Source: a virus
DNA length: 64,000 nucleotides
IMG/VR virus record: IMGVR_UViG_3300029813_000617
Span: 1 to 64,000 of that record
Strand: one strand, 5' to 3'
Shown here: positions 32,519-49,737 of the stretch, piece after piece
Layout: the number at the start of each line of letters is the position of its first letter
How positions within the stretch are numbered: the first letter of the stretch is position 1
Made by a program: the position numbers and the translations under genes
Notes under the pieces: model-generated
Seen by the model: the letters and a program-made list of their open reading frames with translations, nothing else
Told to the model about the DNA's origin: nothing
Databases searched by the model: none

Positions 32519-32989
32519 CTATTTTTCAAGCCTTAAGATCCAAGTCGTGGATTCATCGCTAAGTCCAAACCCGCACTTCTCAAAGAGCTTTATCGATCGA
32601 GTATTATGACTGGAGATGGACGCCCGGAGCTCATGTAGCCCCAGCTCCCAAGCTTTTGCTATTGTCGCTCTCAACAACTTCTCTCCTAAACCCTTACCCT
32701 GCGAAATGGGAGAGATACAAACTCCTATCTCTGCTCCGCTCACTCCAGCAGACTGTCGTAGCTGGCTATAACCGAAGAACCAACCCGGACGGCAACCTAT
32801 GTAGATGCGCCACTCGGACTGTTCTAAGTACTTGCTAAACCAAGCCTTCTGCTCTTCCACGGTGATAGGTCTAGGATCTCGTAGCCACCTGTACACTTCA
32901 GGGTTGCTACGTGTCAATCGCACAAACTCGAGTGTTCCCTCGCTCAGGGGTTCTAAGATGATATCACCAGCCAGTATTGATAACATCAA
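32519..32989 (-). CDS. GNAT N-acetyltransferase (PseH/RimJ-like)
   Basis: QGKGLG motif and N.RSIKLFEKCGF. Confidence 0.8.
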   Translation of the reverse strand: MMLSILAGDIILEPLSEGTLEFVRLTRSNPEVYRWLRDPRPITVEEQKAWFSKYLEQSEWRIYIGCRPGWFFGYSQLRQSAGVSGAEIGVCISPISQGKGLGEKLLRATIAKAWELGLHELRASISSHNTRSIKLFEKCGFGLSDESTTWILRLEK

Positions 32990-34073
32990 TCACCTTTTCG
33001 ATATCCTCATCTGATAGACCCAGGTGCAACGGAAGAGAAATCAACCTCTCAGAACAAAGTTGTGCCACGGGAGTCTCACTTATAAGACCACCATAGATAG
33101 AGTAGGAGTTGTTCGGTATATAATGGACTCCTGGCTCGATACCGTTCCCTTTCAGCTTTTTTATGAGGCCATTTCGGTTTCTTGCTTGGATCCAAAAAAG
33201 ATGCTGAGCACAGGTTCTAGTAGGATCTGATAGGGGCATCTTAATCACAATGTCTCTATGAATCAAACCCTCGCTGTACATCACTGCGATCTGCCTGCGT
33301 CGCTCGTTTCCTGCTTCCAGTACCTTGAGCTGGGCTAAGCCAATAGCAGCGATTACGTCATTCATATGATACTTGTAGCCTATCTCAGTAACATCATACT
33401 GCCACGCGTAGGCTCCAGTATCCTCCTCAGTACGTCTCCAAGTATCCTTGTCTATGCCTAGCCATCGTAGTCGCTTGGCCCTTTCTGCATATTTGCGACT
33501 CGAGGTAGTTAGCATTCCGCCATCAGCCGTAGGGAGATTTTTGACAGCGTGGAAGCTGAAACAGGTCAAGCCAGAACCCCCGATAAGGCGATTTATGTAG
33601 GTGCTCCCACAGGCATGAGCGGCGTCTTCGATAACAGTAATACCCAAGTGTCTGGCAGGCTCTTGCAACATAGCAAGGTCACAAGGCCAGCCCCCAAAGT
33701 GGACACACATAATAGCCTTAGTCTTCGGAGTGATTAGCTTCACTACAGACGCCGGATCAATGTTACACGTCCTAGCCCTAACATCAGCCCAGATAGGGGT
33801 TGCCCCACAGTATCGAATCGCATGATTAGTAGACACAAAAGTAAGTGGGGTCGTTATTACCTCATCACCAGGTCCCACTCCAACTAGCAAGAGAGCTAGG
33901 TGCAAAGCAGCTGTACCTGAGTTGAGAGCAACTGCATACTTCGCTCCTACGTATTCAGCAAATGCTTTCTCAAACCCGGCGGTCTTGGGTCCCAGGCCAA
34001 TCCAGCCCGACCTGAGAACTTCCTCGACCGCTTTAATAGCCTCTTCTGTAATGTATGGCTTAAACAACTGCAC
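32964..34073 (-). CDS. DegT/DnrJ/EryC1/StrS sugar aminotransferase
   Basis: SGTAALHLA, IEDAAHA, FSFHAVKNL..ADGG. Confidence 0.92.
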   Translation of the reverse strand: MQLFKPYITEEAIKAVEEVLRSGWIGLGPKTAGFEKAFAEYVGAKYAVALNSGTAALHLALLLVGVGPGDEVITTPLTFVSTNHAIRYCGATPIWADVRARTCNIDPASVVKLITPKTKAIMCVHFGGWPCDLAMLQEPARHLGITVIEDAAHACGSTYINRLIGGSGLTCFSFHAVKNLPTADGGMLTTSSRKYAERAKRLRWLGIDKDTWRRTEEDTGAYAWQYDVTEIGYKYHMNDVIAAIGLAQLKVLEAGNERRRQIAVMYSEGLIHRDIVIKMPLSDPTRTCAQHLFWIQARNRNGLIKKLKGNGIEPGVHYIPNNSYSIYGGLISETPVAQLCSERLISLPLHLGLSDEDIEKVIDVINTGW

Positions 34074-34076
34074 CTC

Positions 34077-34772
34077 TCAGTCCTCCCACGGAGTAAAGTC
34101 TTTGTTCCAATAGTTGTCACTGGATTTATGGATCTTATCTGCCAGAGTGATTGGGACATGCTCTATCTTGAAATGTTGTGCAATTCTGAACCAATAGTCC
34201 CAATCTGCCGTCGCGGAATAGGAAGCACCTGGGTGAGAATATCTCCCGTGCTTATTTCTGAAATATCCCACTTTATCAATGACCTCTCTGCGATGCATTA
34301 CTGCCAAGACTGCTATGAGATTTGTGCGTTTCATCATCTCCATATCAAAATCGCGAGATAGATCACGCCTGGCAATCTCTCCCTGCCCATATAGGTTTCT
34401 GTGCCAAACATAGTCACAAAAGGCTAGTCCGACGCCTGGATGTGCGTCTAAGTAAGCACTCATAATCTCTAAGAACTTGAGTTTGTAAGTGTCATCATGG
34501 TCAAGATAGCAAAAGTACTTCCCACGAGCAATCCTCATACCGTCATTCCTAACACACTCGCCCTGCCTTAGATATGGCCCCGCCTTTTTGATATAGATGA
34601 TTCTGGAATCATCAAACTGCTTGATTACTTGTTCAGTGTTGTCAGGAGAGACGTCATCAATGATAATAAGCTCGAAGTTGGGCATGGTTTGGAGTAACAC
34701 GCTTCTAATAGATCTCTCGATGAAGCGTGCTCCTTTGTAGGTAGGCATTATGACAGATACTAAGGGGTTCAT
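34077..34772 (-). CDS. GT2 glycosyltransferase
   Basis: VSVIMPTY, IIDD.S.D, YLDHDD, DWDYW; start inferred at MNPLVSV. Confidence 0.88.
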   Translation of the reverse strand: MNPLVSVIMPTYKGARFIERSIRSVLLQTMPNFELIIIDDVSPDNTEQVIKQFDDSRIIYIKKAGPYLRQGECVRNDGMRIARGKYFCYLDHDDTYKLKFLEIMSAYLDAHPGVGLAFCDYVWHRNLYGQGEIARRDLSRDFDMEMMKRTNLIAVLAVMHRREVIDKVGYFRNKHGRYSHPGASYSATADWDYWFRIAQHFKIEHVPITLADKIHKSSDNYWNKDFTPWED

Positions 34773-34774
34773 TA

Positions 34775-35896
34775 TTACTCTCTTGCTATTCTGATGATTT
34801 GGCAAACCCTACTGATCTCTCTCTGACTCACAGAGGTGCCAGTAGGCAGACAGAGCACTTGCTGAGTTAGGAGATCAGTCTCTGGCAACAACAGGCCCTC
34901 GTAAAAAGGGGAAGAGTGATACGGCTCCATGCGATGGCAGCCTGGATAGAAGTAACGTCGAGCAAGTACATTCTCGGCATGCAGAACCTCAACTAGGTGA
35001 TCCCGACTGATACCAGAAATCGCCTCATTGATCTCTAAAACGATGTACTGATAATTACACTTCTCGGTTTCGTCATAGGCTAGGAGCTGAATTCCAGGTA
35101 TGCCCTCCAACTCCTCTCGATATCGCTTATAGTTGCGGTAGTTGACAGCAACAAACTCACTAAAACTCTCCAGTCCCGTCAGCCCCATTGCTGCCGATAT
35201 CTCACTCATCTTGCCATTAGTGCCAACGCTAACAACGTTATCATAGCCTGCAAAACCAAAGTTCTTCATCAAGCGAACCCTGGCAGCTAAGTCATCATCG
35301 TTGGTAGTTATCGCCCCACCCTCGAAAGTATTGAGAATTTTTGTCGCATGGAAACTAAACATCTCAGCATTGCCAAAACTACCAACCATTTGCCCTTTGT
35401 GCGAACATCCAAAGGCATGGGCAGCATCAAACAGGAGCTTTAGACCTTGTCGCTGTGCAAGCTTAGTTAACACTTCTATATTACAGGGCCGTCCCCATAC
35501 ATGAACGCCGATAATGCCAGTAGTACGTAATGTGATCAGTCGCCTCACTTGATCTGGATCTATGTTACAAGTGTAAGGATCAATATCGCAGAAGACAGGC
35601 GTAATTCCCAGCCACTGCAAAGCATGAGCTGTAGCAATAAAGGTAAATGAAGGCACAATGACTTCGCCAGACAGCCCCAATGCTCGGATAGCGACCTCCA
35701 GCGCAACAGTACCATTACAAGCAGCAACACAATGCTTGACTCCTAAAAGGTCAGCAACGCGCTGCTCGAATTCCTGCACATAGCGACCCCTGTTAGTCAA
35801 CCAGTGTCTATCCAGGAGATCGTTGATACGCTCTAGTAGACATTCACGACTGCCGATATTAGGACGACCGACGTGTAGTGGACTCATAATAGTCAA
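34775..35896 (-). CDS. DegT-family aminotransferase (VioA/DesI-like NDP-4-keto-6-deoxyhexose transaminase)
   Basis: LHVGRPNIG, FDAAHAFG, SFHATK..NTFEGG, GTNGKMSE, ARRYF.P. Confidence 0.9.
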   Translation of the reverse strand: MTIMSPLHVGRPNIGSRECLLERINDLLDRHWLTNRGRYVQEFEQRVADLLGVKHCVAACNGTVALEVAIRALGLSGEVIVPSFTFIATAHALQWLGITPVFCDIDPYTCNIDPDQVRRLITLRTTGIIGVHVWGRPCNIEVLTKLAQRQGLKLLFDAAHAFGCSHKGQMVGSFGNAEMFSFHATKILNTFEGGAITTNDDDLAARVRLMKNFGFAGYDNVVSVGTNGKMSEISAAMGLTGLESFSEFVAVNYRNYKRYREELEGIPGIQLLAYDETEKCNYQYIVLEINEAISGISRDHLVEVLHAENVLARRYFYPGCHRMEPYHSSPFYEGLLLPETDLLTQQVLCLPTGTSVSQREISRVCQIIRIARE

Positions 35897-36543
35897 ACGG
35901 CATCAACCTTTCGTATAACCCTGGCAGGAACCCCATAGGCCACCATATTATCGGGGACATATCTTAGCACAACAGCGCCAGCCCCCACCAGGGAACCCCT
36001 ACCGATAGTTACATGCTCTATAACTATTGCTCCGATGCCAACCCACGCAGCTGAACATACCCTTACTCCGCCAGCCAGACAAACTCCTGGGCAAATGTGA
36101 ACTCCATCACCTATGATGCAGTGGTGACCAATACTAGTGCAAGAATTGATTATTGCGTTCTCTCCGATCGTTGCCCCAGGTTTTATCACTGCCCCAGCCC
36201 CAATCACAGTACCTGAGCCGACAGGCACGTCAGCTGCGATGACAGCACTGGGATGAATGGCGGTAGCCAATCTAAAGCCACTATCACGAACCAGTTTGGA
36301 CAACCTTAGTCGTGCTCTGCAGTTCCCGAACGCAAGAATACAGTACTCGACACCCATTTCCTTGAGATTGTCTAATTGTTCCTTTCCACCAAGAATAAAG
36401 GCTTCACAGAACTCTATACCACGACGCTCGGGATTCACATCGTCGAGAAATCCTACAATCTCGTACTCGCCCTGCAAGCGTACAATGTCGGCAACCACTA
36501 AAGCGTGTCCTGAAGCACCCCAGACCACCAACTTGCGTTTCAC
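35893..36543 (-). CDS. Sugar N/O-acetyltransferase (PglD/NeuD-like, left-handed beta-helix)
   Basis: WGASGHA, IHPSA, hexapeptide repeats, GVPAR. Confidence 0.9.
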   Translation of the reverse strand: MKRKLVVWGASGHALVVADIVRLQGEYEIVGFLDDVNPERRGIEFCEAFILGGKEQLDNLKEMGVEYCILAFGNCRARLRLSKLVRDSGFRLATAIHPSAVIAADVPVGSGTVIGAGAVIKPGATIGENAIINSCTSIGHHCIIGDGVHICPGVCLAGGVRVCSAAWVGIGAIVIEHVTIGRGSLVGAGAVVLRYVPDNMVAYGVPARVIRKVDAV

Positions 36544-36549
36544 GAGGTA

Positions 36550-36678
36550 CTATCTCCTTTTCGATACGTCGCTATCAACCGAATACAGATGAACATCTTT
36601 GCACCAACGAAGCACTTTACAGATTTCGAGACCGACTTCTGTGCCTCCTGGAAACACCAAAACTCTGTAGGGTCTCAC
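36550..36678 (-). pseudogene. Truncated N-terminus of an ATP-grasp-type polysaccharide-locus protein
   Basis: 42 codons RVLVFPGGTEVGLEI..., GTGA-coupled to the upstream gene, then an early stop. Confidence 0.5.
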
Positions 36679-37277
36679 ACTCCTGCCTCTGAAGGTAGGA
36701 TGCGCTGGCAAATAAGCATATTGGGAACCTCCTGAACTCTCTCCCATTCAGGATTATTAGTTAGCACCTGGTTTACGGCCTTTGCAACGCTTTTCCACTC
36801 AATGTCATGGAAGGCAACATGACCACCCACAACAACCCATTTTAGGAATCCGCAGTCACTAAGAACTGTTGCGGTGTCATGACCACCGTCTATGAAAAGT
36901 AAACCTACTGGCTCCCAATCTAACTTAACAGCATCCAGGGAGTTCATCTCGTGAACTTCAATCTTATGTCTCCAAGGCTTCACATTCCGCTCAAAAATGT
37001 CGCGAGTATCGGGTTTTTTTGAGGGTACAATTCCCCGCCCTGTTTTATCTCTGGGAACTCTACCACCCCTCGGAGCTTTCACAAGAAAGTAATCAATGCA
37101 GATCACTTTTCTCGCCACAGGAGCCATTGCAACGGTTGATTTGCCGAAATAGCTACCAACCTCCAGCACAACTTGATCCCGCGCAAGGCGCTCTAACACC
37201 TCAGCCTGTGCCAAGGATAACCAGCCGAAAACTTTAGCTATTCGCTGAGATAACGATATCTCCGCCATAGTACTCAC
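36675..37277 (-). CDS. Class I SAM methyltransferase (Methyltransf_24-like)
   Basis: LEVGSYFGKST, LFIDGGH, FHD. Confidence 0.85.
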   Translation of the reverse strand: MSTMAEISLSQRIAKVFGWLSLAQAEVLERLARDQVVLEVGSYFGKSTVAMAPVARKVICIDYFLVKAPRGGRVPRDKTGRGIVPSKKPDTRDIFERNVKPWRHKIEVHEMNSLDAVKLDWEPVGLLFIDGGHDTATVLSDCGFLKWVVVGGHVAFHDIEWKSVAKAVNQVLTNNPEWERVQEVPNMLICQRILPSEAGV

Positions 37278-38152
37278 TCCCCAAAAATCTCTAGTTCCTT
37301 AATGACGTATTTGCACCACTTACCAAATGCTAGATCTTGATACCACACTACCTGAGCAAGTTCTCCCATTTGCAATAGCTTCTCCACCGAGGAGGAGAAA
37401 GAGTTCAAGATATCCTCAGCTTCCTCAGCCGAACTCGCATAGAAACTCATTTGATCCCAGTCCAGGAACGCTTTGAAAGGGCGAGTATCTATGTCACTGA
37501 TAAGTAAAGGCACTATCCCTAACTGCATTGCCTCATAGAACCTAAAGGAAGTTGGCCCATAGCCTCGCGGGCTGAGGGCGATATAGGACTGGAGCATCTG
37601 GTTGACAAAGAAACCAAGACTTTTGACGCTGCCGCGTATGTCAGTATCATCTCTCTTGCCTAGAAGGCACTGCATCTCGAATCGGATCGTTGGGTATGTC
37701 CCCAACCTCCCAACAAAAGAGGCTAGCCACTTTTTTCTCGGCTTAGGAGAAGGAGTCTTGTATGGATAAACCAACAAGGGCACATCGAAACTTTTTCCTC
37801 TGCGGGACGAGAAAAACTTGGTGATTCTACCAAGATCAACTAGAGGGCCTGCAGAGTCCTGGCAGATTGTAAAGGTCCTATCCTCATTGAGAGTTCGTTC
37901 TAACACTTGCTGCTGAAGGAATTCCAGTCCCGTCTTTCCATGACTGTGATTCCAGTGATACCAGGTCCAGTATATGGGAAGATAATGCCAATCAGCAACA
38001 CCAGGTCGATTCGTGACAAATCCTGGGTTCTGCTCGAGAAATCTAAGGAAATCTTGCTCAATGCCATAGCTTCCTTTGTTATGTGCAGGATAGGCAAATA
38101 CGGTAGATTGTGGTTGGAGCTCAGGAGGTACTGGCAGAACGAATATCTTCAC
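37274..38152 (-). CDS. Exostosin-like (GT47) glycosyltransferase
   Basis: ASFVGR...LSPRGYGPTSFRFYEAMQLG.VP...PF...LDW. Confidence 0.85.
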   Translation of the reverse strand: MKIFVLPVPPELQPQSTVFAYPAHNKGSYGIEQDFLRFLEQNPGFVTNRPGVADWHYLPIYWTWYHWNHSHGKTGLEFLQQQVLERTLNEDRTFTICQDSAGPLVDLGRITKFFSSRRGKSFDVPLLVYPYKTPSPKPRKKWLASFVGRLGTYPTIRFEMQCLLGKRDDTDIRGSVKSLGFFVNQMLQSYIALSPRGYGPTSFRFYEAMQLGIVPLLISDIDTRPFKAFLDWDQMSFYASSAEEAEDILNSFSSSVEKLLQMGELAQVVWYQDLAFGKWCKYVIKELEIFGE

Positions 38153-38241
38153 TTCAACGACTCCATCCGCATCTTTTACACAGGGGTAAGAAGCGTTCTC
38201 CCCTGCTTAGTCTTTCGTATACCTCTTTGTATGGCTAAACA

Positions 38242-38928
38242 TCAATTCCCCTTAATCAGGTCAGCACACCAGAGGCAGAACAGAGAGCCTTTTAGTCTGG
38301 TCAGTACCTGTTCCGTACCAGGATTTGGATAAAAAAAAGCCTCTTCTACCACAGAGAATTCTGGTAGTGCAGCTAAGACTTGAGATTTGGTGAAAATCCT
38401 GTGAGCATTGAAGCAGAGCATGGATGTATGGCTTATAGGTACACTTATTATGAAGTGTCCTCCTGGCTCAACTACTCGGGAAACCTCTTTGAATGCTTTG
38501 ATGCTGCCATACGGGTCTAACTTGTCGCCATACCGACCTAACCCAACATGCTCTATTACGCACAAGCTACACAAGAGTTCCACGGAGCCATCGGCAACAG
38601 GAAGATTGGTGATTGAAGCTCGCCTGCAAGTCAAGTTAGGTAAAGAGACTGGAAGGGGCCTTATATCAAAACTAGTAGTTGGGAACAACCGAGAGATGAT
38701 CCCTACGAGAAGTGCAGTTGAACCCACGTCAACTACACTCTTTGGATGAATCTCAACGATTCTCTTAAAAGCCCACGTATCCTGACGGAAGCAAAATCCA
38801 TCCACATGAGTCACAGCGGTTTTCTGGCCGAGACACGGGTATCGAATTCCTCCCTTCTCTGCACCAGGAAGTTTCATGTAGGCTATGTACTCTCTGCGAT
38901 ACTCCTCCATCATCTCTTCCCGATTCAC
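38242..38928 (-). CDS. DUF268-like SAM methyltransferase
   Basis: VDVGS, DIRPL, SLCVIEHVGLGRYGD.LD, FNAHRIF. Confidence 0.8.
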   Translation of the reverse strand: MNREEMMEEYRREYIAYMKLPGAEKGGIRYPCLGQKTAVTHVDGFCFRQDTWAFKRIVEIHPKSVVDVGSTALLVGIISRLFPTTSFDIRPLPVSLPNLTCRRASITNLPVADGSVELLCSLCVIEHVGLGRYGDKLDPYGSIKAFKEVSRVVEPGGHFIISVPISHTSMLCFNAHRIFTKSQVLAALPEFSVVEEAFFYPNPGTEQVLTRLKGSLFCLWCADLIKGN

Positions 38929-39521
38929 TATTCTGTCTCCACTTGATACGAAAACACCAGAACTCCTCGATGTATCTTCTGGAAAGATCCCTTTCCCGTG
39001 TAATCCAAACAGACAAAACTCGAACTAATTCTGTATACAGCAAAGTCCACCTCAGCTCTTGTAGGCCAGTTATAGCCACACACCTCGGGATCTCTCTTTC
39101 CAAAATCATCTACATCGTCGATTGCGATAACAAGTGAAGAGCTAGGACAATATTGACGAATAGTTTCTAGCTCATCTAACAAAGGGCACGGAAAATCTGC
39201 ACCGCCAGTGCCACTGCCACTAAAGTGCCCATCTAGCCAGAAGAAGATTCGATCTTCGGAAGAACACAATGGAAAGGTCTGCTTACGAAAGATCTCGTAG
39301 CTTTTACCCAGGAAGACCTGCTGATTCGCCCCTGTTGGATACTGAGACACCGCTAACCTATAAAGCCCTAGTGCAACTTCAACAGTATAACAGCGCTCAA
39401 ATATACCTGACTCAAGAGCCCTTCGGAAAGAGTACCCCAGATGTGTCCCTGACTCGATGAATACATTGCACTGAGCATCCCTAGCAATCTTCAAGATTTG
39501 AGATGTGATAGTGGACATCAT
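38928..39521 (-). CDS. Putative SAM methyltransferase
   Basis: FIESGT..G, FWLDGH.SG, CPLLDEL, IAIDD. Confidence 0.7.
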   Translation of the reverse strand: MMSTITSQILKIARDAQCNVFIESGTHLGYSFRRALESGIFERCYTVEVALGLYRLAVSQYPTGANQQVFLGKSYEIFRKQTFPLCSSEDRIFFWLDGHFSGSGTGGADFPCPLLDELETIRQYCPSSSLVIAIDDVDDFGKRDPEVCGYNWPTRAEVDFAVYRISSSFVCLDYTGKGSFQKIHRGVLVFSYQVETE

Positions 39522-39525
39522 CTAC

Positions 39526-40173
39526 TTACTTAGGGTCTCGGCAGATCGCAACAACTGGCGATGCTTTTGTGTCAGTATCCAAGGAAGGACCGAGAGTGTG
39601 ATTAGAGAGCCTAACGTCACCGAAATATGAGAGAAGGACATCTCGAAACTCTCCAGCAGTCCATTCTCGAACATGCCGTATGTTTCCTGGGGGGCCCTCG
39701 CTCTGTGCTCCTCCTCTAGAGTTTCTGTTCGGCGACGAGATGTAAAGAGTTCCTGGGTCTTTGAGAATGCGGCGTAGCTGACTCAGCACCTTCTGATAAT
39801 CCTTGACATGCTCAATGATCTCAATGGCAGCGATGATATCAAAGCCAGCGTCGGGCAGAGAAGAATCCTTTATATCCCCACACAGAAAGCGAACGTTCTT
39901 CAAGGGGAAACACTTCCTAGCAAACTCATAGCCACGAGGGACTATTTCGACTCCAGTCACCGACCGAGCCTCTTGGGCCAGAATGGCTGTACCTAAACCT
40001 GAACCCGATCCGACATCACAAACTACCCTATCTACAGACTCACGTGCAACAGCCTCGTAGATTTCTCGCTGGGGGTAAGAGAATAACACCCTACTTTTCC
40101 CCCAACGATCGAACATAGTCTCTACAGGATTACATTCCATCTCGGGATTTTCTTTGTACATCATGGTCCTCAC
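39526..40173 (-). CDS. Class I SAM methyltransferase (type 11-like)
   Basis: DVGSGSG.G, EIIEH, SSPN, HVREW. Confidence 0.85.
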   Translation of the reverse strand: MRTMMYKENPEMECNPVETMFDRWGKSRVLFSYPQREIYEAVARESVDRVVCDVGSGSGLGTAILAQEARSVTGVEIVPRGYEFARKCFPLKNVRFLCGDIKDSSLPDAGFDIIAAIEIIEHVKDYQKVLSQLRRILKDPGTLYISSPNRNSRGGAQSEGPPGNIRHVREWTAGEFRDVLLSYFGDVRLSNHTLGPSLDTDTKASPVVAICRDPK

Positions 40174-40964
40174 TTTACAGGAGTATTTGGGAGACTGACT
40201 ATCTCCCGCCAGTTCTTGTTGCGGTGTATCTCAAGACCACCAAACTGCATATTTACGAAACCTAGCTTTTTGGAGAGTTGCTGCTCACCCCAGTTATTTT
40301 CGTTCCTATAATACAGTTCTACCAGACCTAGGGCGATGTTGCTGCGAGCAAGCAGTTCTTCCAGGAACTTGGCACGATATACTGATAGCCAAAGAACAAC
40401 TGGCCAGCACCTGCTCTTCAACACTCCATCTTGGAAGCGTGTCCACCATAACGTATAGTCCTGTTGTCGAGTAGGTGTAAGGTGTACTCCTCTGAAAGAA
40501 ACCTGACCAGGGTCAACGCTTATATGGGTAAGGTTGCCTAGTTGGAAGTTGTGAGCTCTTCCGATTAGCGGATAGCCAACCAGGCGTATCTGCACTAACT
40601 CTTTGTCTCTTTCAAAAGCATCGCAACTATGCTTAAGGAGTTGCTCCAACTCAGAAACATACACATTGTCATCTAAGTGAATGAAACTAAGATCGGAGCC
40701 TTGTTCATGAGCCTTGCGTACAGCAGAGAGAAGAGCCGCAGTGCCACCAAGACGCTTCAGACGCTGAATGTAGGTAATGTTCGGCTTGTTATAAATCTCC
40801 TTGCCTACTCCATACCAAGTGGATCCAGGCTTTGGTAAATCGTCAACAACAATGTGAGGATAAGTCTCGCCAACAACCTTCCTTAGTGAGGCTAGGGAGT
40901 ACCGAGCAAACTGAGCACGCTGCTGACTGTGAATGTAGCTCGGCGTCACAATTGTAAGCTGCAC
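40170..40964 (-). CDS. Putative GT-A fold glycosyltransferase
   Basis: TIVTPSY, IVVDD, FIHLDD; start inferred at GTG 40964. Confidence 0.55.
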   Translation of the reverse strand: MQLTIVTPSYIHSQQRAQFARYSLASLRKVVGETYPHIVVDDLPKPGSTWYGVGKEIYNKPNITYIQRLKRLGGTAALLSAVRKAHEQGSDLSFIHLDDNVYVSELEQLLKHSCDAFERDKELVQIRLVGYPLIGRAHNFQLGNLTHISVDPGQVSFRGVHLTPTRQQDYTLWWTRFQDGVLKSRCWPVVLWLSVYRAKFLEELLARSNIALGLVELYYRNENNWGEQQLSKKLGFVNMQFGGLEIHRNKNWREIVSLPNTPVK

Positions 40965-40968
40965 CTTG

Positions 40969-41469
40969 CTATTCTCCCCTTGAGGCTTCGCACAAAAGAT
41001 CCCCATCTATAATGGATCCATTGCGCGAGGGAACTACTCTGCAGCTTATGATGCTGAATCCCGCCTGCTCTACAAAATGTCTTAGGCTCTCCACGTCAAA
41101 TAGGTTGTGGTTTAGATACCCAGGTCCTCTATTCTGCATACCCAGAATGCTGTGAAGTCCCGTGCTCGCTCGGAAAGCCAAGTCTCCTGCAAGCCAACGC
41201 CTCATATGTGTAGTGATGTTAGGGCATCGAATTTTCAACCGCCCTCCAATCTTCAATACTCTGAGCCACTCTCTAAGCGTCGCAGGAAAATCTGAGGCAG
41301 GTATATGCTCAACCAAGTGCGATGAGTAAACCTCGTCTACACTCTCGTCAGGATAATCCAGATGTCTTACATCCATTCTCTGATCAGCTTTAGAGTAATA
41401 CTTATCTATGTTCACGTAGCCCTTGAGAAGAGCTCCGCCACAACCCAGGTTCAGTTTTAGAGTACACAC
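40969..41469 (-). CDS. SAM methyltransferase (type 11-like)
   Basis: LNLGCG, SSHLVEH, RVLK.GG. Confidence 0.85.
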   Translation of the reverse strand: MCTLKLNLGCGGALLKGYVNIDKYYSKADQRMDVRHLDYPDESVDEVYSSHLVEHIPASDFPATLREWLRVLKIGGRLKIRCPNITTHMRRWLAGDLAFRASTGLHSILGMQNRGPGYLNHNLFDVESLRHFVEQAGFSIISCRVVPSRNGSIIDGDLLCEASRGE

Positions 41470-42452
41470 TATGAAACCCTCCTAATCATCTGAGCTATAC
41501 GCATGTCCCAAGTGTGACGAGCAAGTACTTCCCTTCGCCCTGCAGTAGCAATTTCCTCACGTTCCTCCTCGTGGGCAAGATAGTACTTGGCTAACTCTAT
41601 AGCTTCAGGTACTGAGTTGAACCACACTAGGTGTTTCCTGTTCTCAAAGAATGTCTCTATGCCAGGTACATAGTGAGTTAAGTGAAAAGCCCCACTAGCC
41701 ATCGAGTTCATGGCACGTCTCCACGATGCGTACATATGAATATCGTTCACACCATTGACACCCAGGGTAACTTTTGTGCGAGAGCAAACTTTAGAGAATG
41801 TGCCACCAAAGACAAATGGGTGCAGGTACACATCTCCCCTCTCTCTCAGATACACCCAACTCCCGATAGTTCCAAAGATATGTAAACAGAATCCCTCACC
41901 AAGAATAGTTTCTAGCAACTGGCGGCGAACCTTGTAGCCTGTATTCTGAGGAAGAGGGATATTAGATCCCATAAAGACTAGATCCCAGGTCTTCTCTTCC
42001 TTTTTTGGGTAGAATACTTCAGGATCGACACCGCAACCCCACCAATCTCCAACATACTTCACACCCGCTGCTTCATATATGTTGCGACACCTCGCGTCAT
42101 CATTGTTGAACAAGGTGCAATCTGCGTACTGACCTATATCAACTACCCATGGTTGCAAGTTCCACCGAAAGTCTCCATAGAAATGAATGACATAGGTATC
42201 CAAGCTCTCCTTGATTGCTTCGACAGTAGCTCCAGAAACGTTTCCGCACTTCCCAAGGTGAATCAGGCGAGGCTGAAACCGCAGAGCAGCCTCGACTAGC
42301 ATCTCATTCATTCGAATGACACCGTGTTTGGCAGCGAGAGATCCATTATCGAAAGTTTCTAGGGTAGCGATTTTGCGATACGCCTTTATTATACCATTCA
42401 CGTTGTCTGCTGAGTAGGCAGACGAGATAGTATCAACGTATAGAACTTTCAT
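41469..42452 (-). CDS. CgeB-like (Glyco_trans_1_2) glycosyltransferase
   Basis: Start MKVLYVD (ATGA coupling); MASGAF.LT, YYLAH..ERE.IA..G...V...HTW..R. Confidence 0.8.
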   Translation of the reverse strand: MKVLYVDTISSAYSADNVNGIIKAYRKIATLETFDNGSLAAKHGVIRMNEMLVEAALRFQPRLIHLGKCGNVSGATVEAIKESLDTYVIHFYGDFRWNLQPWVVDIGQYADCTLFNNDDARCRNIYEAAGVKYVGDWWGCGVDPEVFYPKKEEKTWDLVFMGSNIPLPQNTGYKVRRQLLETILGEGFCLHIFGTIGSWVYLRERGDVYLHPFVFGGTFSKVCSRTKVTLGVNGVNDIHMYASWRRAMNSMASGAFHLTHYVPGIETFFENRKHLVWFNSVPEAIELAKYYLAHEEEREEIATAGRREVLARHTWDMRIAQMIRRVS

Positions 42453-43348
42453 ACAGATGCCTTTCCCGCAACTACTGCGTCGATTATGCGCTCCCCTACT
42501 CGTTTCCAAGTATGTTCCTGGACTTTCTCCAGGCCAAGCTTGCAAAGGCACTCTCTTTCTACATCATGGGACAGATAGTAGTCAATAAGATCAAGTTCCT
42601 CTGTAGGACTCCTGAACTGAGGTACGGCATCTCCGAACAAATCCTCTATTCCGGCGTTCCAGGCCGAGATACAGAATCCACCGCTCGCCAATATGTCGAA
42701 TACTCGGACTGGAACAAAACCCTGGTCTGACATTTCGTGATACTGGTCATTCAGACTTATCTTGACTGAGCCATACAAATCAGCCAAGTCGTCATAAGGG
42801 AAAAACGCACCCCCATAGTATTTCTCAGGTAGAAGACTTTTCCATTGGCCACTCCACGCCTTTATCCTGTAATCTCCAGATAGCAAGGGGGTCAGAGCTC
42901 GTCGCCCCCAAGTTCCCTTGGGTCCCTGTCCTGGCCTGGGATTAGCTACAAGAGCTATGTCGCAGCCGAAATCCTTACGCTCTATGGGGGGAGTCTTGGA
43001 GCTAGCCCCAACCATCGTCTCAACATTTTGGCAACCCATATCACGGAGGACTTGAGTGAATGGTGAAGAGAGACAGAACACTTTGCCAAAGCGTTGCAGA
43101 TAACTAGGGTTCCTCCCAGCAGAATTTGGGTGATCATAGAGCCAGGCGATAGTATAGATGTCGGGTAACCTTTGAAAATCATAACCCAATTGAAAGAAGC
43201 AAGCATCTGGATCCTTGTCTGAGACTTCGACTCCTAGTGACTGTAGAGCCCTAGTGATCTCCTGTCTTACCCAATAGTCACCCCATAACAGAGCGGTGGA
43301 TGGTGGTTTGGCATACTGCATATCACTCGAGAGGACATATATCCTCAT
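42449..43348 (-). CDS. CgeB-like (Glyco_trans_1_2) glycosyltransferase
   Basis: WGDYW, KISLND...M...GFV..RVFDILASGG, EHTW..V. Confidence 0.8.
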   Translation of the reverse strand: MRIYVLSSDMQYAKPPSTALLWGDYWVRQEITRALQSLGVEVSDKDPDACFFQLGYDFQRLPDIYTIAWLYDHPNSAGRNPSYLQRFGKVFCLSSPFTQVLRDMGCQNVETMVGASSKTPPIERKDFGCDIALVANPRPGQGPKGTWGRRALTPLLSGDYRIKAWSGQWKSLLPEKYYGGAFFPYDDLADLYGSVKISLNDQYHEMSDQGFVPVRVFDILASGGFCISAWNAGIEDLFGDAVPQFRSPTEELDLIDYYLSHDVERECLCKLGLEKVQEHTWKRVGERIIDAVVAGKASV

Positions 43349-43349
43349 C

Positions 43350-44210
43350 TTACACGCCCCCTGGCATCTTTCCGCTATCAGGGCACCAAGTGTACTGCCC
43401 TATATCTCGAACTGTCACCTTGGTTTCATAGTGGCCGGGGTTTCCTAGTTTACCTTGCTCAGTTAGTTCTCTAACTCTCAATACGGCAGCATTATGAGCA
43501 GACGTTTTGAAGTCTCTATACATTGCCCCATCTTGCATCTCAAAGTTTTCGTCAGGCAACTCTCTGCAGTTAGCATTTCTCACATAGGCACTTCTGAGTC
43601 CATGATGCTGCTGCCTCGTATGGAGCTCGCTATCCTCTAGGCCATATATACTGTGTTCACAGAAATACCCCAGCCTCACGAGTGTGGCAGCACTCATAAC
43701 ATAGAGTCCCCCAGGATTAGGGCAATTATCCAGGAAAACTCCCTCAACCTCTTTCCAAAGAGTCGGGGTAAACCACGTGTGTCCCCAGGGCTGACCAAAC
43801 CCCTGCACGTTGTTGCCAACTATCCCGAGACCAGGGAGCTCCGAAGCATAGCAAAGATAACTAAGCCAGTACGGGCTAACCTCTATGTCATTATCTATAC
43901 AACAGTACCAAGCAGCTTCGCCTTCCGAGACCTTTAGCCCAAAGTTCTTCCCTACTGCGATTCCTCTATTCTCGGGCAACAAAATCAATCTATCGATCAA
44001 GTCTGCTCGCCTGAGCTTCTTCAAGTTCGCAACGGTTTCATCCCAACTACCATTATCAACAACTGTTAAGACGTGAGGTAGGAAAGTATTCGCGAAGACC
44101 GAGATCAGGCTCTGGCCAGTACATTTCCATCTGTTAAAAGTGACCATCGTAACGGAAGCCCTCTGTTCAGACTTCTTAGCATCCGCTACGAACTGTTCAG
44201 GGCTAAACAC
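43350..44210 (-). CDS. GT2 glycosyltransferase
   Basis: VTFNR, VVDNGS.D, ENRG...N, IDND, YGLED. Confidence 0.85.
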   Translation of the reverse strand: MFSPEQFVADAKKSEQRASVTMVTFNRWKCTGQSLISVFANTFLPHVLTVVDNGSWDETVANLKKLRRADLIDRLILLPENRGIAVGKNFGLKVSEGEAAWYCCIDNDIEVSPYWLSYLCYASELPGLGIVGNNVQGFGQPWGHTWFTPTLWKEVEGVFLDNCPNPGGLYVMSAATLVRLGYFCEHSIYGLEDSELHTRQQHHGLRSAYVRNANCRELPDENFEMQDGAMYRDFKTSAHNAAVLRVRELTEQGKLGNPGHYETKVTVRDIGQYTWCPDSGKMPGGV

Positions 44211-44215
44211 CTAGT

Positions 44216-46045
44216 TTATCCTTCTTCCTTGGATTGTGCGAGTATCCCTGTCCACCCAGAAGCCGCTTCTTTTTTCCTCATTTTTGATATGTGACTACCA
44301 GGCCCAGACGTCCTGACATCTCGCGCTGCATCAGGCCACCTGAAATCCATATCAACCTTCTTGCTCAGAGCAGGAAGTTTCTCGGTCCACAGCTGTCTAT
44401 ACCGAGCAAGACTTTCAGGCGGAATCCACTTGCCAGTCTTCCGTTGAGTATAAGCCCACAAATGAGTCAACACAGCTGTCGGGCAGTAAATGTTTTTCAG
44501 GCCCGCCTCGAGACACCTTAAGCCGTAGTCTACATCTCCATAGCCAAGCTTGTACCCTTCATCTATTAGACCTACTAGTTCTATAGCAGATTTCTTGATA
44601 AGCAGACATGCACCTGTGTTAAAGGGAACCTCTCTCACTTCTAGTGATTCTGGGGTATCTGCAGAAGCTCCGTCAAAGGGATGGAAAGGATTCGTGCGAT
44701 GAATGCTCCCTCCTATGTGCTGAATTCTCCCATCAGCATACAATAACTTGGCCCCAACTGTTGCCACGTCATCAGGTTGAGCTAATCGAATCATTTCCCT
44801 GAGCCAACCTCTAGTTCTCACAATGGTGTCACTGTTCAGAAGTAGACAGTATTCTCCTCTAGAGTGCCAGATCCCCTGGTTGTTTGCAGCAGCCCATCCG
44901 AGGTTTTCCTCATTGGCTATCAGTGTCAGACAGTTCTGTTTTTCAAGCCATTCCACACTTCCATCCTTACTTCCATTGTCAACCACGATCAATTCGAAGG
45001 AGCGGATAGTTTTATCCAGAACACTTCTGACGCAATCGGCTGTAATCTCGAGAGTATTGTAAGTGACAACTATTACGGAAGTTAGTCTCGATACTATCTT
45101 GGGAGGCCACCGCTCCAGACCCTCCCGTATCAGAAGCTGACTCCGAGGCAACCGAAGATGTTTAGATGTCCCGAGATCTTTGGGTATTTCGAATGTACTA
45201 GAAGAAAGCCCTTCGGAACTTTTGGGACTCTTTGGAGCTGAGTTCTTCCCCTGGAACAGATCCTCGTCACTACGCAACTCTGGCCACTGGGATACCAATC
45301 TTTGAAGGTTATAATCTCCCCGACCTGCTGACTCTGGTCCTAAACCATTCTCGAAGTGACACAATATGGCTTTGGGTTGATACACAACCTTCCAGCCTGC
45401 TTTGCGAGCACGCCAACAAAAATCAGTATCCTCGAATTGGCCACCCTCGAAGCCCTCATCGAAGCCTTTAAGGTCTTCCCACACTTTACGACGGATCAGA
45501 ATACATGCTCCTGTCACAGCGTTTAACTCACGTCGCACGTTAGCTTCTTCACAAGAGAGGCTCTTTCCTCGAAAGGGATGATAGGGATGTTTTTGACTGG
45601 TACGAGCTACTCCTGCATGTTGAATTGTGCCTCCCAGTGGCTTCCCTTTTGTCTCGGGATAGACTAGTAAGGCACCTACAAGACCAATCCTGGGATCAGC
45701 CTGTAATTCCTGCTGCATGTGAGTAAGCCACTGCTGCATTGGCTCCGTATCAGCATCCAGCAAACAGATATCACCAGGAACTTGCTTGACCGCCCAGTTA
45801 ATGATGTCAGGGAAGTTCCTGCGAACCTTGGATCTGAGGATTACAGCTTGTCCTGAACGCTTGAGTTCACTCAAGTACTTTCGAAGCTCAGTACTAGGGG
45901 AGCAGTCATCGGCGATATAAAGCCGATAGGTTGCCTTGGTATGCTCGCGAAGAGCGTGGATGCAGCGACGCAAATACTCTACCCCATTGTACGTTGGGAT
46001 CACAATGGAGATTACATCAGTAGTAGCATCGGAAGAGGGGCTCAT
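44216..46045 (-). CDS. Double-domain GT2 glycosyltransferase
   Basis: Two GT2 units (ISIVIPTYN...EDTDFC and SVIVVTYN...GDVDYG), each with IQH.G and TGAC.LI. Confidence 0.9.
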   Translation of the reverse strand: MSPSSDATTDVISIVIPTYNGVEYLRRCIHALREHTKATYRLYIADDCSPSTELRKYLSELKRSGQAVILRSKVRRNFPDIINWAVKQVPGDICLLDADTEPMQQWLTHMQQELQADPRIGLVGALLVYPETKGKPLGGTIQHAGVARTSQKHPYHPFRGKSLSCEEANVRRELNAVTGACILIRRKVWEDLKGFDEGFEGGQFEDTDFCWRARKAGWKVVYQPKAILCHFENGLGPESAGRGDYNLQRLVSQWPELRSDEDLFQGKNSAPKSPKSSEGLSSSTFEIPKDLGTSKHLRLPRSQLLIREGLERWPPKIVSRLTSVIVVTYNTLEITADCVRSVLDKTIRSFELIVVDNGSKDGSVEWLEKQNCLTLIANEENLGWAAANNQGIWHSRGEYCLLLNSDTIVRTRGWLREMIRLAQPDDVATVGAKLLYADGRIQHIGGSIHRTNPFHPFDGASADTPESLEVREVPFNTGACLLIKKSAIELVGLIDEGYKLGYGDVDYGLRCLEAGLKNIYCPTAVLTHLWAYTQRKTGKWIPPESLARYRQLWTEKLPALSKKVDMDFRWPDAARDVRTSGPGSHISKMRKKEAASGWTGILAQSKEEG

Positions 46046-49732: not shown

Positions 49733-49737
49733 CTTCC

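Follow-up and report, generated by a model that had tools for sequence, protein, structure and literature searches.

A block of 16 glycan-biosynthesis genes lies within the head module of an uncultured 91-kb phage record classed as a provirus. We favour, with some caution, the view that it serves to glycosylate virion proteins late and in the cytoplasm, the glycan being methylated, carrying a 4-acetamido-4,6-dideoxyhexose and derived from keto-sugar intermediates of the host. The soluble enzyme set, the head-module placement, co-conservation with a sister phage, and the lack of membrane and export genes and of a 5hmC/5hmU route together lead us to this reading. The preliminary description had proposed a long, O-methylated glycan on capsid or tail. 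The glycosyltransferases and five methyltransferases that this calls for are present; the acceptor cannot be read from the sequence nor the glycan length from the genes, and we infer both. Expression of the island would be late, to judge from gene position only.

Layout and enzymes of the island

The 64,000-nucleotide stretch of the record that we analysed is referred to as the window. In its ORF list, sixteen minus-strand ORFs make up the whole of positions 32519-46045, with 13 of the 15 junctions being overlaps or gaps of at most 5 nt and the other two being gaps of 89 and 131 nt, so the genes are co-oriented and tightly coupled, as first described. The island is bounded by the portal gene and a 502-aa protein upstream, and by a 1507-aa ligase/Dam/XkdF-protease protein and the capsid gene downstream, which bears out its placement between portal and capsid. 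Pfam, NCBIfam and PDB searches gave seven glycosyltransferase proteins with eight glycosyltransferase (GT) domains (one a weak call), five class I methyltransferases, two DegT aminotransferases and two acetyltransferases. In the following list, orthologues are those of the sister phage G001, whose portal is 66% identical and which has an island at the equivalent site.

47713..49038, minus strand: portal protein, upstream flank outside the island (phrog_10963 portal, E 3e-29)
46017..47525, minus strand: 502-aa protein, upstream boundary, no assigned function; backbone gene
44216..46045, minus strand: double-domain GT2 glycosyltransferase, 609 aa (PF00535, two stretches, E 1e-46)
43350..44210, minus strand: GT2 glycosyltransferase, 286 aa (PF00535, E 6e-17; IDNDI motif; 63% orthologue)
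42449..43348, minus strand: CgeB-like GT-B glycosyltransferase, 299 aa, specific to this phage (PF13524, E 6e-17)
41469..42551, minus strand: CgeB-like GT-B glycosyltransferase, 360 aa as listed (PF13524, E 2e-25)
40969..41469, minus strand: small class I SAM methyltransferase, 166 aa (PF08241, E 9e-10; N-terminal LNLGCGG motif)
40170..41006, minus strand: probable GT-A-like glycosyltransferase, 278 aa, weak call (PF00535, E 1e-3, 19.4 bits, cut-off 23.3)
39526..40173, minus strand: class I SAM methyltransferase, 215 aa (PF08241, E 3e-19; 56% orthologue)
38928..39521, minus strand: class I methyltransferase fold, 197 aa (AlphaFold2 model and Foldseek)
38242..38928, minus strand: DUF268/Methyltransf_11 SAM methyltransferase, 228 aa (PF03269, E 6e-12, and PF08241; 67% orthologue)
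37274..38152, minus strand: Exostosin/GT47-family glycosyltransferase, 292 aa (PF03016, 62.6 bits, cut-off 33.4)
36675..37277, minus strand: Methyltransf_24 SAM methyltransferase, 200 aa (PF13578, E 9e-12)
35893..36543, minus strand: NeuD/PglB/VioB-family sugar N-acetyltransferase, 216 aa (TIGR03570, 213.5 bits, cut-off 160.8; PglD_N and hexapeptide repeats)
34775..35896, minus strand: DesI/VioA-like NDP-4-keto-6-deoxyhexose 4-aminotransferase, 373 aa (PF01041, E 3e-110; PDB 2po3, E 3e-125)
34077..34805, minus strand: GT2 glycosyltransferase, 242 aa, within the amino-sugar module (PF00535, E 6e-25; LDHDD motif)
32964..34073, minus strand: ArnB/PseC/perosamine-synthase-like sugar 4-aminotransferase, 369 aa (PF01041, E 5e-107; SFHAVK motif)
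32519..32989, minus strand: GNAT acetyltransferase, 156 aa (PF13302, E 1e-19)
27850..32373, minus strand: 1507-aa ligase/Dam methylase/XkdF-protease polyprotein, downstream boundary, backbone gene (PF01068, PF02086, PF14550)
24806..27547, minus strand: 913-aa zinc-ribbon/scaffold-protease-like/major capsid fusion protein (PF25209, E 1e-35, residues 608-909; also phrog_4523 and phrog_133)
22354..23505, minus strand: extra GT-B glycosyltransferase, 383 aa, between head-completion gene p163 and a 316-aa tail gene (phrog_7162 glycosyltransferase, E 9e-33; weak PF13692 match)

The gene families named in the preliminary description were nearly all recovered: three GT2 proteins (one with two domains), two CgeB-like proteins, one exostosin/GT47 protein, five SAM methyltransferases, two DegT aminotransferases (both with SFHxxK and DAAHA motifs), and one PglD/NeuD-like and one GNAT acetyltransferase. 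Its GT-A-like gene fared less well, the GT2 score falling below the cut-off and hhalign against the GT2 profile being not significant (probability 0.5%); we retain it as a weak but probable call on sequence motifs, IVTPSY, VVDD and HLDDN being kept in a 47% sister-phage orthologue. The C-terminal domain of the 609-aa GT2 (residues 321-601) is the best-conserved island protein, with 74% identity to the sister phage's 370-aa GT2 and metagenomic homologues at 50-79%. The 299-aa CgeB-like protein is only 29% identical to the single CgeB-like protein of the sister phage, and the 360-aa one has a 53% orthologue of 344 aa; because the latter, as listed, shares 103 nt with the gene before it, its real start is probably further downstream. 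The GT47 protein matches human EXT1 (E 1e-4) and has a 54% orthologue.

Four methyltransferases were assigned by Pfam. The 197-aa protein has no Pfam match, and was assigned by fold: its 3109 homologues have E-x-G..E..LDGH..ILIDD motifs in common, and its AlphaFold2 model (pLDDT 92.4) matches Hen1, COMT, CCoAOMT and TrmR in Foldseek at probability 1.00 and TM 0.5-0.6, which are class I, mostly cation-dependent O-methyltransferases. On the strength of the model, it is likely a cation-dependent O-methyltransferase.

Amino-sugar module and source of precursors

The amino-sugar module, of which the 216-aa acetyltransferase gene is the first, is found in this phage and not in its sister. The top PDB matches of that acetyltransferase are PerB (E 2.5e-37), PglB and VioB. 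Its partner, the DesI-like aminotransferase, has an SFHATK lysine motif, a TIGR04427 score of 538 bits (under the 650 cut-off) and cellular homologues at 70-76% identity. As judged by these homologies, the pair is well assigned and would yield a 4-acetamido-4,6-dideoxyhexose. The 369-aa aminotransferase has ArnB as its best PDB match (E 2e-73) and scores 321 bits for PseC and 310 bits for ArnB, both under cut-off; the GNAT gene, which overlaps it by 26 nt, has PseH as its best NCBIfam match (44.7 bits, under the 93.1 cut-off). Therefore, of the two N-acetylated rare sugars originally proposed, the one from the DesI/NeuD-type pair is supported (2po3 and TIGR03570), and the one from the ArnB/PseC-like and GNAT pair, below every equivalog cut-off, would be a more conjectural product.

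No Epimerase/SDR, Polysacc_synt_2 or NTP_transferase domain was seen in either phage record, and no sugar dehydratase or nucleotidyltransferase was found across the 91 kb; as suggested earlier for the keto-sugar precursors, these, and the NDP-sugars too, must be host-made. We envisage that the host would provide an NDP-4-keto-6-deoxyhexose, such as dTDP-4-keto-6-deoxyglucose, the RmlA/RmlB product, which the DesI-like aminotransferase and the VioB/PglB-like acetyltransferase would turn into a Vio4NAc- or PerNAc-type NDP-4-acetamido-4,6-dideoxyhexose, with the ArnB/PseC-like aminotransferase and the GNAT making a second N-acetylated amino sugar. A priming glycosyltransferase would put the first sugar onto a structural protein, the best candidates being the highly conserved C-terminal domain of the double-domain GT2 and the GT-B adjoining the tail gene; the remaining glycosyltransferases would lengthen the chain, and its O-methylation would fall to the methyltransferases. 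The end product would be a lineage-specific glycan coat on the phage particle, and the sister phage's glycan would be different, free of amino sugar yet methylated.

Conservation of the island with the phage backbone

Seven island orthologues are common to the two phages at 47-74% identity, and since they are as conserved as the portal (66%) and the capsid (63-67%), we conclude that the island has been vertically inherited and under selection in the phage. In 63 more distant relatives, portal and capsid are a median of 2.3 kb apart, with no island homologues between them. The extra GT-B, a ninth GT domain lying outside the island and ahead of the tail gene, has a 62.5% orthologue in the equivalent place of the sister phage; it occurs only in the two island-bearing phages and in 0 of 32 island-less loci that reach at least 1.5 kb past p163. 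Both boundary proteins belong to the backbone: pieces of the 502-aa protein and of the 1507-aa polyprotein (sister-phage orthologue 64-71%) are present in island-less relatives too. The 502-aa protein has no match in Pfam, PHROG, NCBIfam or PDB; it has a GS-x10-DxD motif and an ASCH-like N-terminal region (residues 5-133, an ESM Atlas structure lead only).

GC content is 47.6% in the island against 51.2%; such a lower value is expected of moron-like acquisition, and counts against virion glycosylation. It might also, in a metagenomic assembly, reflect a bacterial polysaccharide locus misjoined into a phage contig. We regard this as extremely improbable, as the sister phage was assembled independently and carries an orthologous island at both junctions, which answers the worry over a chimera and indicates that the island is real. 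Moreover, a portal with 89% identity and a GT2 with 77% identity each lie on a 16,031-bp contig, probably one and the same, and the backbone 502-aa gene runs 29 nt into the first glycosyltransferase gene before its stop.

Candidate targets of the glycan

The enzymes could instead remodel undecaprenyl-linked O-antigen, capsule or S-layer precursors at the inner membrane face, relying for export on the initiating transferase, flippase and polymerase of the host; the altered cell surface would then bring about serotype conversion, superinfection exclusion or the shielding of progeny from re-adsorption. O-antigen and capsule loci typically contain such enzyme families, the conserved GT2 has bacterial homologues with O-antigen or cell-wall glycosyltransferase annotations, close homologues of the DesI-like gene (70-76% identical) occur in many cellular genomes, the provirus classification makes lysogen expression conceivable, and the GC of the island is that of an acquired moron. 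However, known conversion modules are small and have membrane components of the GtrA/GtrB/Gtr or Oac type, whereas no protein among these 16 has a membrane segment (no 19-residue window with mean hydropathy of at least 1.8), and the 91-kb record has no flippase, polymerase or initiating transferase and no multi-pass membrane ORF besides the tape measure and one antisense ORF. The absence of exporters and membrane proteins was thus correctly described; it was also taken to argue against host-surface conversion, a reading that it does weaken, but soluble glycosyltransferases could use lipid-linked host glycans with a host flippase exporting them, soluble GT2 and GT-B enzymes on lipid-linked acceptors being the norm in O-antigen and capsule pathways. 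The island also lies amid the head genes, is translationally coupled and has promoter- or terminator-like sites in no excess over background, has co-diverged with the structural genes, and is accompanied by a glycosyltransferase wedged between head-completion and tail genes. On balance, we consider an envelope target unlikely. More doubtful is a protein outside the virion, either host flagellin, pilin or S-layer protein, with receptor blocking, or a non-structural or ejected phage protein such as the 502-aa or 1507-aa one. Distant homologues of the conserved GT2 domain often carry TPR-repeat fusions, an architecture used by protein-targeting glycosyltransferases of flagellin islands (a lead only); sets of DegT, PglD-like and glycosyltransferase genes are also characteristic of loci for the O-glycosylation of pilin and flagellin, PglB, a 'pilin glycosylation protein', is the acetyltransferase's second-best PDB match, and the overlap with the 502-aa gene could be read in the same way. 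Yet the domain search found no TPR or other recognisable targeting domain in the island proteins, the two candidate phage proteins persist where the island is absent, and the head-module position favours a virion target.

Glycosylation of modified phage bases, with oligosaccharides built as a defence against restriction, seems to us very improbable. Amino-sugar tailoring and five O-methyltransferase-like enzymes are not known from DNA glycosylation systems. This phage is rich in DNA-modification genes, and phage glycosyltransferase arrays that place di- and trisaccharides on 5hmC are known (bioRxiv 10.1101/2023.12.21.572611). But the Dam-like domain, two N6_N4 methylases and Mom all lie outside the island, DNA-modification genes being at 82-91 kb of the record, and the 91 kb offers no route to 5hmC or 5hmU: neither record, each only 84% complete, has a dCMP/dUMP hydroxymethylase (Thymidylat_synt), a C5 cytosine methylase or a TET/JBP dioxygenase, this last being a weak result as the TET model matched no control genome. 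Even less probable is a free glycoside or oligosaccharide akin to a secondary metabolite, rather than a macromolecule-bound glycoconjugate. DesI is a deoxysugar enzyme of antibiotic synthesis, and natural-product clusters contain sets of DegT, methyltransferase and glycosyltransferase genes, but here aglycone-forming genes (PKS, NRPS, cyclases) are absent, as is any exporter, eight GT domains far exceed natural-product tailoring needs, and the genes sit in the head module.

Virion glycosylation therefore remains our preferred explanation. Counting against it, neither the capsid domain nor the 316-aa tail protein has a C-terminal extension, Ser/Thr-rich tract or meaningful lineage-specific insertion relative to island-less phages of the group. 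In a few mycobacteriophages, cassettes of glycosyltransferases and O-methyltransferases modify capsid and tail tube (PMC11600133, PMC12363180, PMC12619734), and do so with a much smaller gene set than the 16 genes of this island; no sequence relationship between the island glycosyltransferases and theirs could be demonstrated. The Mimivirus fibril cluster has an aminotransferase, a PglB-like acetyltransferase and five glycosyltransferases, and is associated with methylated Vio4NAc (PMC9614988), a combination of aminotransferase, PglB-like acetyltransferase and glycosyltransferases also found here. Finally, CgeB, to which two of the island glycosyltransferases are similar, glycosylates a spore-crust protein inside the mother-cell cytoplasm (PMC13577073), and provides a precedent for cytoplasmic protein glycosylation.

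A glycan-enzyme block in the head gene string

The source record, of the provirus class, is 91,230 bp long and 84% complete according to CheckV. The island occupies about 15% of it and comprises 16 ORFs within 32519-46045, every one on the minus strand. These are tightly packed: at 13 of the 15 junctions inside the island, neighbouring genes overlap or lie no more than 5 nt apart, the only larger gaps measuring 89 nt (38153-38241) and 131 nt (36544-36674), and the first island gene overlaps the stop of the preceding 502-aa backbone gene by 29 nt. A promoter and terminator scan gave no excess over background, with 17 promoter-like sites against 21.3 in shuffled sequence and eight terminator-like sites against 13.6. 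The island is co-oriented with the structural genes, with the portal on one side and the capsid on the other, and an additional GT-B glycosyltransferase (GT) gene is found before the tail gene.

Genes around and within the island (coordinates, strand, product; island genes numbered in order of transcription)
51940-52866, minus, ATPase part of the split large terminase, upstream of the island
50301-51179, minus, nuclease part of the split large terminase, upstream of the island
47713-49038, minus, portal, upstream of the island
46017-47525, minus, 502-aa protein, upstream boundary, no family match
Island gene 1, minus, double GT2 (609 aa)
Island gene 2, minus, GT2 (286 aa)
Island gene 3, minus, CgeB-like GT-B (299 aa; PF13524)
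Island gene 4, minus, CgeB-like GT-B (360 aa; PF13524)
Island gene 5, minus, small methyltransferase (166 aa)
Island gene 6, 40170-41006, minus, weak GT-A-like protein (278 aa)
Island gene 7, minus, methyltransferase (215 aa)
Island gene 8, 38928-39521, minus, 197-aa protein
Island gene 9, minus, DUF268/MT11 methyltransferase (228 aa)
Island gene 10, minus, GT47/exostosin (292 aa)
Island gene 11, minus, Methyltransf_24 (200 aa)
Island gene 12, 35893-36543, minus, NeuD/PglB/VioB acetyltransferase (216 aa)
Island gene 13, 34775-35896, minus, DesI-like aminotransferase (373 aa)
Island gene 14, minus, GT2 (242 aa)
Island gene 15, 32964-34073, minus, ArnB/PseC-like aminotransferase (369 aa)
Island gene 16, 32519-32989, minus, GNAT (156 aa)
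27850-32373, minus, 1507-aa protein, one ORF with domains of ATP-dependent DNA ligase, Dam-type methylase and, at the C-terminus, XkdF-type protease
24806-27547, minus, major capsid fusion of 913 aa (zinc-ribbon/scaffold/capsid, PF25209)
Downstream of the capsid fusion, p232 and p163, small conserved head proteins of 232 and 163 aa
22354-23505, minus, GT-B glycosyltransferase (383 aa), between the p163 gene and the 316-aa tail gene
Downstream of the GT-B, 316-aa tail protein, then 1573-aa tape measure

Several features of the backbone are worth recording. A 140-aa ORF lies between the two terminase ORFs (region 49053-52866, minus strand), and behind them come a 188-aa ORF and, at 49053-49670 (minus strand), the gene for an HNH endonuclease. 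In the 502-aa protein, an ESM Atlas structure search pointed to an ASCH-like N-terminal domain at residues 5-133, and the conserved HTGS-x10-DCDLVIR resembles the GS...DxD of Pol-beta-type nucleotidyltransferases; pieces of this protein recur beside the ligase/Dam polyproteins of distant relatives. The capsid fusion carries four zinc-ribbon-like CPxCG units at about residues 100-215, a scaffold/protease-like middle, 13 Glu-Pro repeats (423-449) and the capsid domain itself at 608-913. Three paralogues of about 340 aa lie between the tape measure and a 562-aa hub gene (11674-14734, minus strand); one has no Pfam match, and none has a counterpart in the closest relative, the sister phage described below, where the tape measure directly precedes the hub homologue. 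No tRNAs were found in the 64-kb window. Genes of phage type occupy the ends of the record (RuvB-like, RlaP, N6_N4 methylases, Mom, M23 peptidase), and the far end (87227-91230; 5227-9230 of retrieved locus L003) encodes an RlaP-type Pol-beta nucleotidyltransferase, two N6_N4 DNA methylases and a Mom-family protein. This nucleic-acid modification cluster, together with Mu gpT-like capsid matches, hints at a Mu-like lineage.

Enzymes of the island and functions missing from it

Eight GT domains are encoded in the island and a ninth, the GT-B, elsewhere; nine is an upper bound on the number of distinct linkages, unless one of the enzymes is processive. The GT47 assignment is well above threshold (PF03016, 62.6 bits against a cut-off of 33.4), and the GT47 domain of EXT1 was matched at E 1e-4. 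The 278-aa protein, described beforehand as GT-A-like, is a weaker call: its VVDD and HLDDN motifs, of the DxD type, are kept in the sister orthologue, but PF00535 scored 19.4 bits, under the 23.3 cut-off, and an hhalign comparison with the GT2 profile was non-significant (probability 0.5%).

The 197-aa protein itself has no Pfam match. Its 3109 homologues share conserved E-x-G, LDGH and ILIDD motifs, with an E-x-G-x-x-x-G motif taken as motif I of the methyltransferase fold. An AlphaFold2 model built from a 50-sequence alignment (pLDDT 92.4) matched Hen1, COMT, CCoAOMT and TrmR in Foldseek with probability 1.00, so that the modelled fold is that of a class I SAM methyltransferase, and the matches are mostly cation-dependent O-methyltransferases. 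The earlier count of five methyltransferases therefore holds at the level of fold, with the fifth supplied by this model.

PDB sequence searches gave no match for the 502-aa, 383-aa GT-B or 197-aa proteins, seven of ten island proteins matched no PHROG family, and when the island was compared by megablast with 50,697 phage records, there was no match. Against the same records, tblastn with the GT-B found only matches of 24-28% identity, with no mycobacteriophage among the organisms listed.

The preliminary description proposed two aminotransferase/acetyltransferase pairs, each making an N-acetylated sugar; the first appears credible and the second is less clear. Both aminotransferases match PF01041 over its cut-off (E 5e-107 and 3e-110). 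They keep the Schiff-base lysine, in SFHAVK and SFHATK, as well as DAAHA, and lack the ColD histidine, which identifies them as transaminases and not ColD-type dehydratases. The product of 34775-35896 matches PDB entry 2po3 at E 3e-125, which we take to be DesI, the dTDP-4-keto-6-deoxyglucose 4-aminotransferase of Streptomyces venezuelae, although the PDB label reads '4-dehydrase'. The DesI/VioA equivalog family TIGR04427 is its best by far, although the score of 538 bits stays under the 650-bit cut-off, and we predict that the enzyme works like DesI. The neighbouring acetyltransferase passes TIGR03570 (213.5 bits against 160.8), contains PF17836 (PglD_N) and PF00132, and has PerB, PglB, VioB and PglD as its top PDB matches. 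These enzymes acetylate the 4-amino group of 4-amino-4,6-dideoxy sugars. Judged by their sequences, the two enzymes could plausibly make an NDP-4-acetamido-4,6-dideoxyhexose. The second aminotransferase scored 320.9 bits against the 423.5-bit PseC cut-off and about equally well, likewise under the cut-off, with ArnB; the best family of the GNAT was PseH, at about half the required score (44.7 of 93.1 bits). Thus both members of the putative PseC/PseH pair fall under the equivalog cut-offs, and the record contains no SDR dehydratase.

Cellular homologues of the DesI-like gene are 70-76% identical, the named ones being from Nostoc and Calothrix. Among isolated phages, Microcystis phage Mae-JY22 comes nearest (capsid 31% identical). 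Both are weak hints only as to the host, which is probably not an actinobacterium.

A hydropathy scan found no transmembrane-like segment in the island proteins, and among all ORFs of at least 80 aa in the 91-kb record only the tape measure, an ORF antisense to the capsid gene and a 187-aa ORF (65024-65587) have two or more hydrophobic segments. By this measure there are no membrane components of the Wzx/Wzy, ABC or Gtr type in the island or the record; flippase, polymerase, ABC permease, Gtr protein and initiating phosphoglycosyltransferase are thus all missing, in agreement with the initial observation that no export genes accompany the island. Nor does either phage record, this one or the sister's (each 84% complete), contain an Epimerase/SDR, Polysacc_synt_2 or NTP_transferase domain, for which controls were positive in 14 of 14 genomes. 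This bears out the claim that dehydratase and nucleotidyltransferase are missing, and activated keto-sugars must therefore be supplied by the host.

Relatives and the origin of the island

Searches of IMG/VR and GTDB found one close relative, the sister phage, an 86-kb contig (IMGVR_UViG_3300033149_004284 = JALGWB010000001.1). Identities to it are 66% for the portal, 57% for the 502-aa protein, 64-71% for the 1507-aa protein (1343 aa in the sister), 63-67% for the capsid, 65% for p232, 72% for p163 and 67% for the tail protein. At the same insertion site, between genes of the 502-aa and 1507-aa types, the sister carries an island of 14 genes and about 11 kb. Seven genes are orthologous, at 47-74% identity: the C-terminal domain of the double GT2 (74%), the 286-aa GT2 (63%), the 360-aa CgeB-like GT-B (53%), the GT-A-like protein (47%), the GT47 protein (54%) and the methyltransferases of 228 aa (67%) and 215 aa (56%). 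This conserved core and the structural genes have diverged to about the same extent, and this speaks for vertical inheritance and for selection in the phage. The extra GT-B also has an orthologue (62.5%) in the same place.

The rest of the sister island differs. The first GT2 there has one domain only, and some of the genes stand in a different order. The sister island encodes seven GT domains, six methyltransferase domains (including an MT24-GT2 fusion) and two unknowns, with neither an aminotransferase nor an acetyltransferase; where the present phage has amino-sugar genes, there are a further GT2, the fusion, extra methyltransferases and the two unknowns. The amino-sugar module (32519-36543), found in the present phage and not in its sister, is a further addition specific to the former. 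Among more fragmentary relatives, 16,031-bp contigs yielded a portal (89% identical) and a GT2 (77%), and double GT2 proteins were found at 79% and 70% identity. This suggests at least three more island-bearing relatives, the co-location of portal and GT2 being read from the equal contig size. Other portal relatives were 73% and 72% identical.

A portal profile (16 portals) retrieved 80 more distant IMG/VR loci, with portals 30-41% identical. In the 63 that have both the portal and a downstream capsid, several of them near-duplicates, the distance between the two genes was 0.2-8.5 kb (median 2.3 kb), in contrast to 20.2 kb here, and the gap contained no homologue of an island gene; the five longest gaps held pieces related to the 502-aa and 1507-aa proteins. 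The island is therefore an insertion that separates two backbone genes in a single sublineage. Such an insertion fits the GC content of the island (47.6%; GC3 46.8%), which is lower than that of 22 structural genes (51.2%; GC3 51.5%). The GT-B was likewise absent from all 32 loci that extend at least 1.5 kb past p163, and it probably belongs to the same glycosylation system.

Glycosyltransferase clusters of other composition occur on other uncultured phage-like contigs (retrieved loci L091-L094). On one of these, from a subsurface metagenome (L094, 8550-14925), a cluster of three GT2, one GT1, a Glyphos_transf protein and a PIG-L deacetylase, set among small unknown ORFs, includes a GT2 that is 56% identical to the conserved GT2 domain of the island, which indicates that this GT2 travels between glycan cassettes. 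In one distant relative, whose portal is 36% identical, the gene immediately upstream of the portal is of the DegT family (L042, 444-1517), so that sugar-tailoring genes sit elsewhere in the head modules of the wider group.

Proposed target and known systems

We consider late, cytoplasmic glycosylation of a particle protein to be the most likely function of the island, the timing being read from gene position. All the enzymes are soluble. Their genes are set within the head gene string and coupled in translation, the GT-B that co-occurs with the island lies between genes for head completion and tail, and a diverged sister phage has retained the island, though with some change of content. Host NDP-4-keto sugars would pass through two transaminase/acetyltransferase steps to give N-acetylated amino sugars; a priming GT would act on a structural protein, the remaining GT domains would extend the chain, and the five methyltransferases would O-methylate the glycan. 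When the capsid domain and the tail protein were compared with those of 23 island-less relatives, the C-termini were the same, no Ser/Thr-rich tract was seen, and the only lineage-specific insertions were two of four residues each.

The main rival is remodelling of the host envelope, in which the soluble GTs would act on lipid-linked acceptors and the product would be exported by the host. Such acceptors are what soluble GTs normally use, and a provirus with an acquired-looking island would suit this role; however, it has to contend with the lack of any membrane component or promoter/terminator signal, and with the position of the island far inside the late operon and its divergence in step with the structural genes. 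Glycosylation of a non-virion protein, glycosylation of DNA and production of a free glycoside are each less likely. With respect to DNA, neither a thymidylate-synthase-like hydroxymethylase (PF00303) nor a C5 DNA methylase (PF00145) was found in either phage record, each 84% complete, and PF12851 (TET/JBP) had no match either, a weak result since its control matched in no genome; the DNA-modification genes of the record, two N6_N4 methylases and the Mom-family protein, lie at 87-91 kb, remote from the island. A chimeric assembly, which the preliminary description had raised as a concern, is effectively excluded by the orthologous island at the same site in the sister assembly and by the 29-nt overlap with the backbone gene.

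Particle glycosylation can be carried further, to an uncultured tailed-phage lineage that builds a large, strain-variable and heavily O-methylated heteroglycan on the assembled particle in the cytoplasm. This would be a 'serotype' coat like the fibril glycans of giant viruses or the spore crust, made with up to nine GT domains and, in the present member, two phage-tailored N-acetylated amino sugars derived from host keto-sugars, and diversified by O-antigen-like module swapping, the amino-sugar module being present here and absent from the sister. We offer this fuller picture tentatively, as a possibility that we rate somewhat short of an even chance. To our knowledge, experimental proof of phage-encoded virion glycosylation is limited to a few mycobacteriophages with 2-4 genes, in which it alters antibody recognition. 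The size of the island, 16 genes, points to an investment by some environmental phages in coats that match those of giant viruses in complexity. If so, virus-made glycans with bacterial-type rare sugars would extend to tailed phages, and an all-soluble, tractable system would be available in which proteins are glycosylated in the cytoplasm with sugars that are methylated or of the Vio4NAc type. One would then ask what such coats do in nature, whether, for instance, they shield the particle from surface traps or defences of the host, stabilise it or help it to adhere.

Among systems with experimental proof, the nearest is that of the mycobacteriophages Che8 (cluster F), Corndog (O) and Myrna (C), in which glycans are reported at the C-termini of capsid and tail tube subunits (PMC11600133, PMC12363180, PMC12619734). 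In those accounts the cassettes use soluble, phage-encoded cytoplasmic GTs and no export machinery, with an O-methyltransferase added in cluster O, and the island likewise has soluble GTs, putative O-methyltransferases and no export genes. However, the cassettes described there have 2-4 genes against 16 here (eight GT domains and five methyltransferases, plus the ninth GT domain) and lack the two amino-sugar tailoring pairs; in contrast to their C-terminal glycans, neither the capsid nor the tail protein of the present phage shows an acceptor tail at its C-terminus. Nine GT domains in a 91-kb phage is a high number, given that a cyanomyovirus with 13 scattered GTs is reported as possibly holding the most of any marine phage (PMC12801897).

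In enzyme logic, the closest system is the fibril cluster of Mimivirus (APMV), R135-L143 plus added genes, which includes the aminotransferase L136, the PglB-like N-acetyltransferase N-L142 and five GTs, and yields 2-O-methyl-Vio4NAc (PMC9614988). Here too a 4-aminotransferase, a PglB/VioB-type N-acetyltransferase, several GTs and methylation are combined in one cluster whose content varies between clades, as that of the island does between the phage and its sister. Mimivirus makes its virion-surface glycan without host secretory machinery, a feature to which we liken the gene content of the island. Unlike the phage, Mimivirus encodes a 4,6-dehydratase (R141), and it is a eukaryotic giant virus with a promoter per gene, whereas the genes of the island are strung together like an operon and belong to a tailed phage; in sequence the two sets are not closely related.

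The spore crust of B. subtilis (CgeB/CgeD, sps operon; PMC13577073, PMC7439481) is the closest cellular analogy. CgeB glycosylates CgeA in the mother-cell cytoplasm (PMC13577073), and the system shares with the island soluble CgeB-family GTs (PF13524, two copies in the island), a DegT-type aminotransferase and an acetyltransferase, with which a self-assembled protein shell is decorated inside the producing cell's cytoplasm without a flippase. It serves cellular differentiation and also involves legionaminic acid and rhamnose, and it resembles the phage genes no further than in the families involved. Bacterial loci for O-antigen, capsule and the O-glycosylation of pilin or flagellin (PglB/C/D/E, PseC/PseH, PerA/PerB, VioA/VioB) have the DegT, NeuD/PglB/VioB, GNAT, GT2, GT-B and O-methyltransferase families in common with the island and are its probable evolutionary source. 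Unlike them, the island sits inside a phage head module and has no initiating phosphoglycosyltransferase, flippase, polymerase, ligase/oligosaccharyltransferase, dehydratase or nucleotidyltransferase. We believe that it is best classed as a much larger, amino-sugar-equipped form of phage virion glycosylation, and not as a new kind of system.
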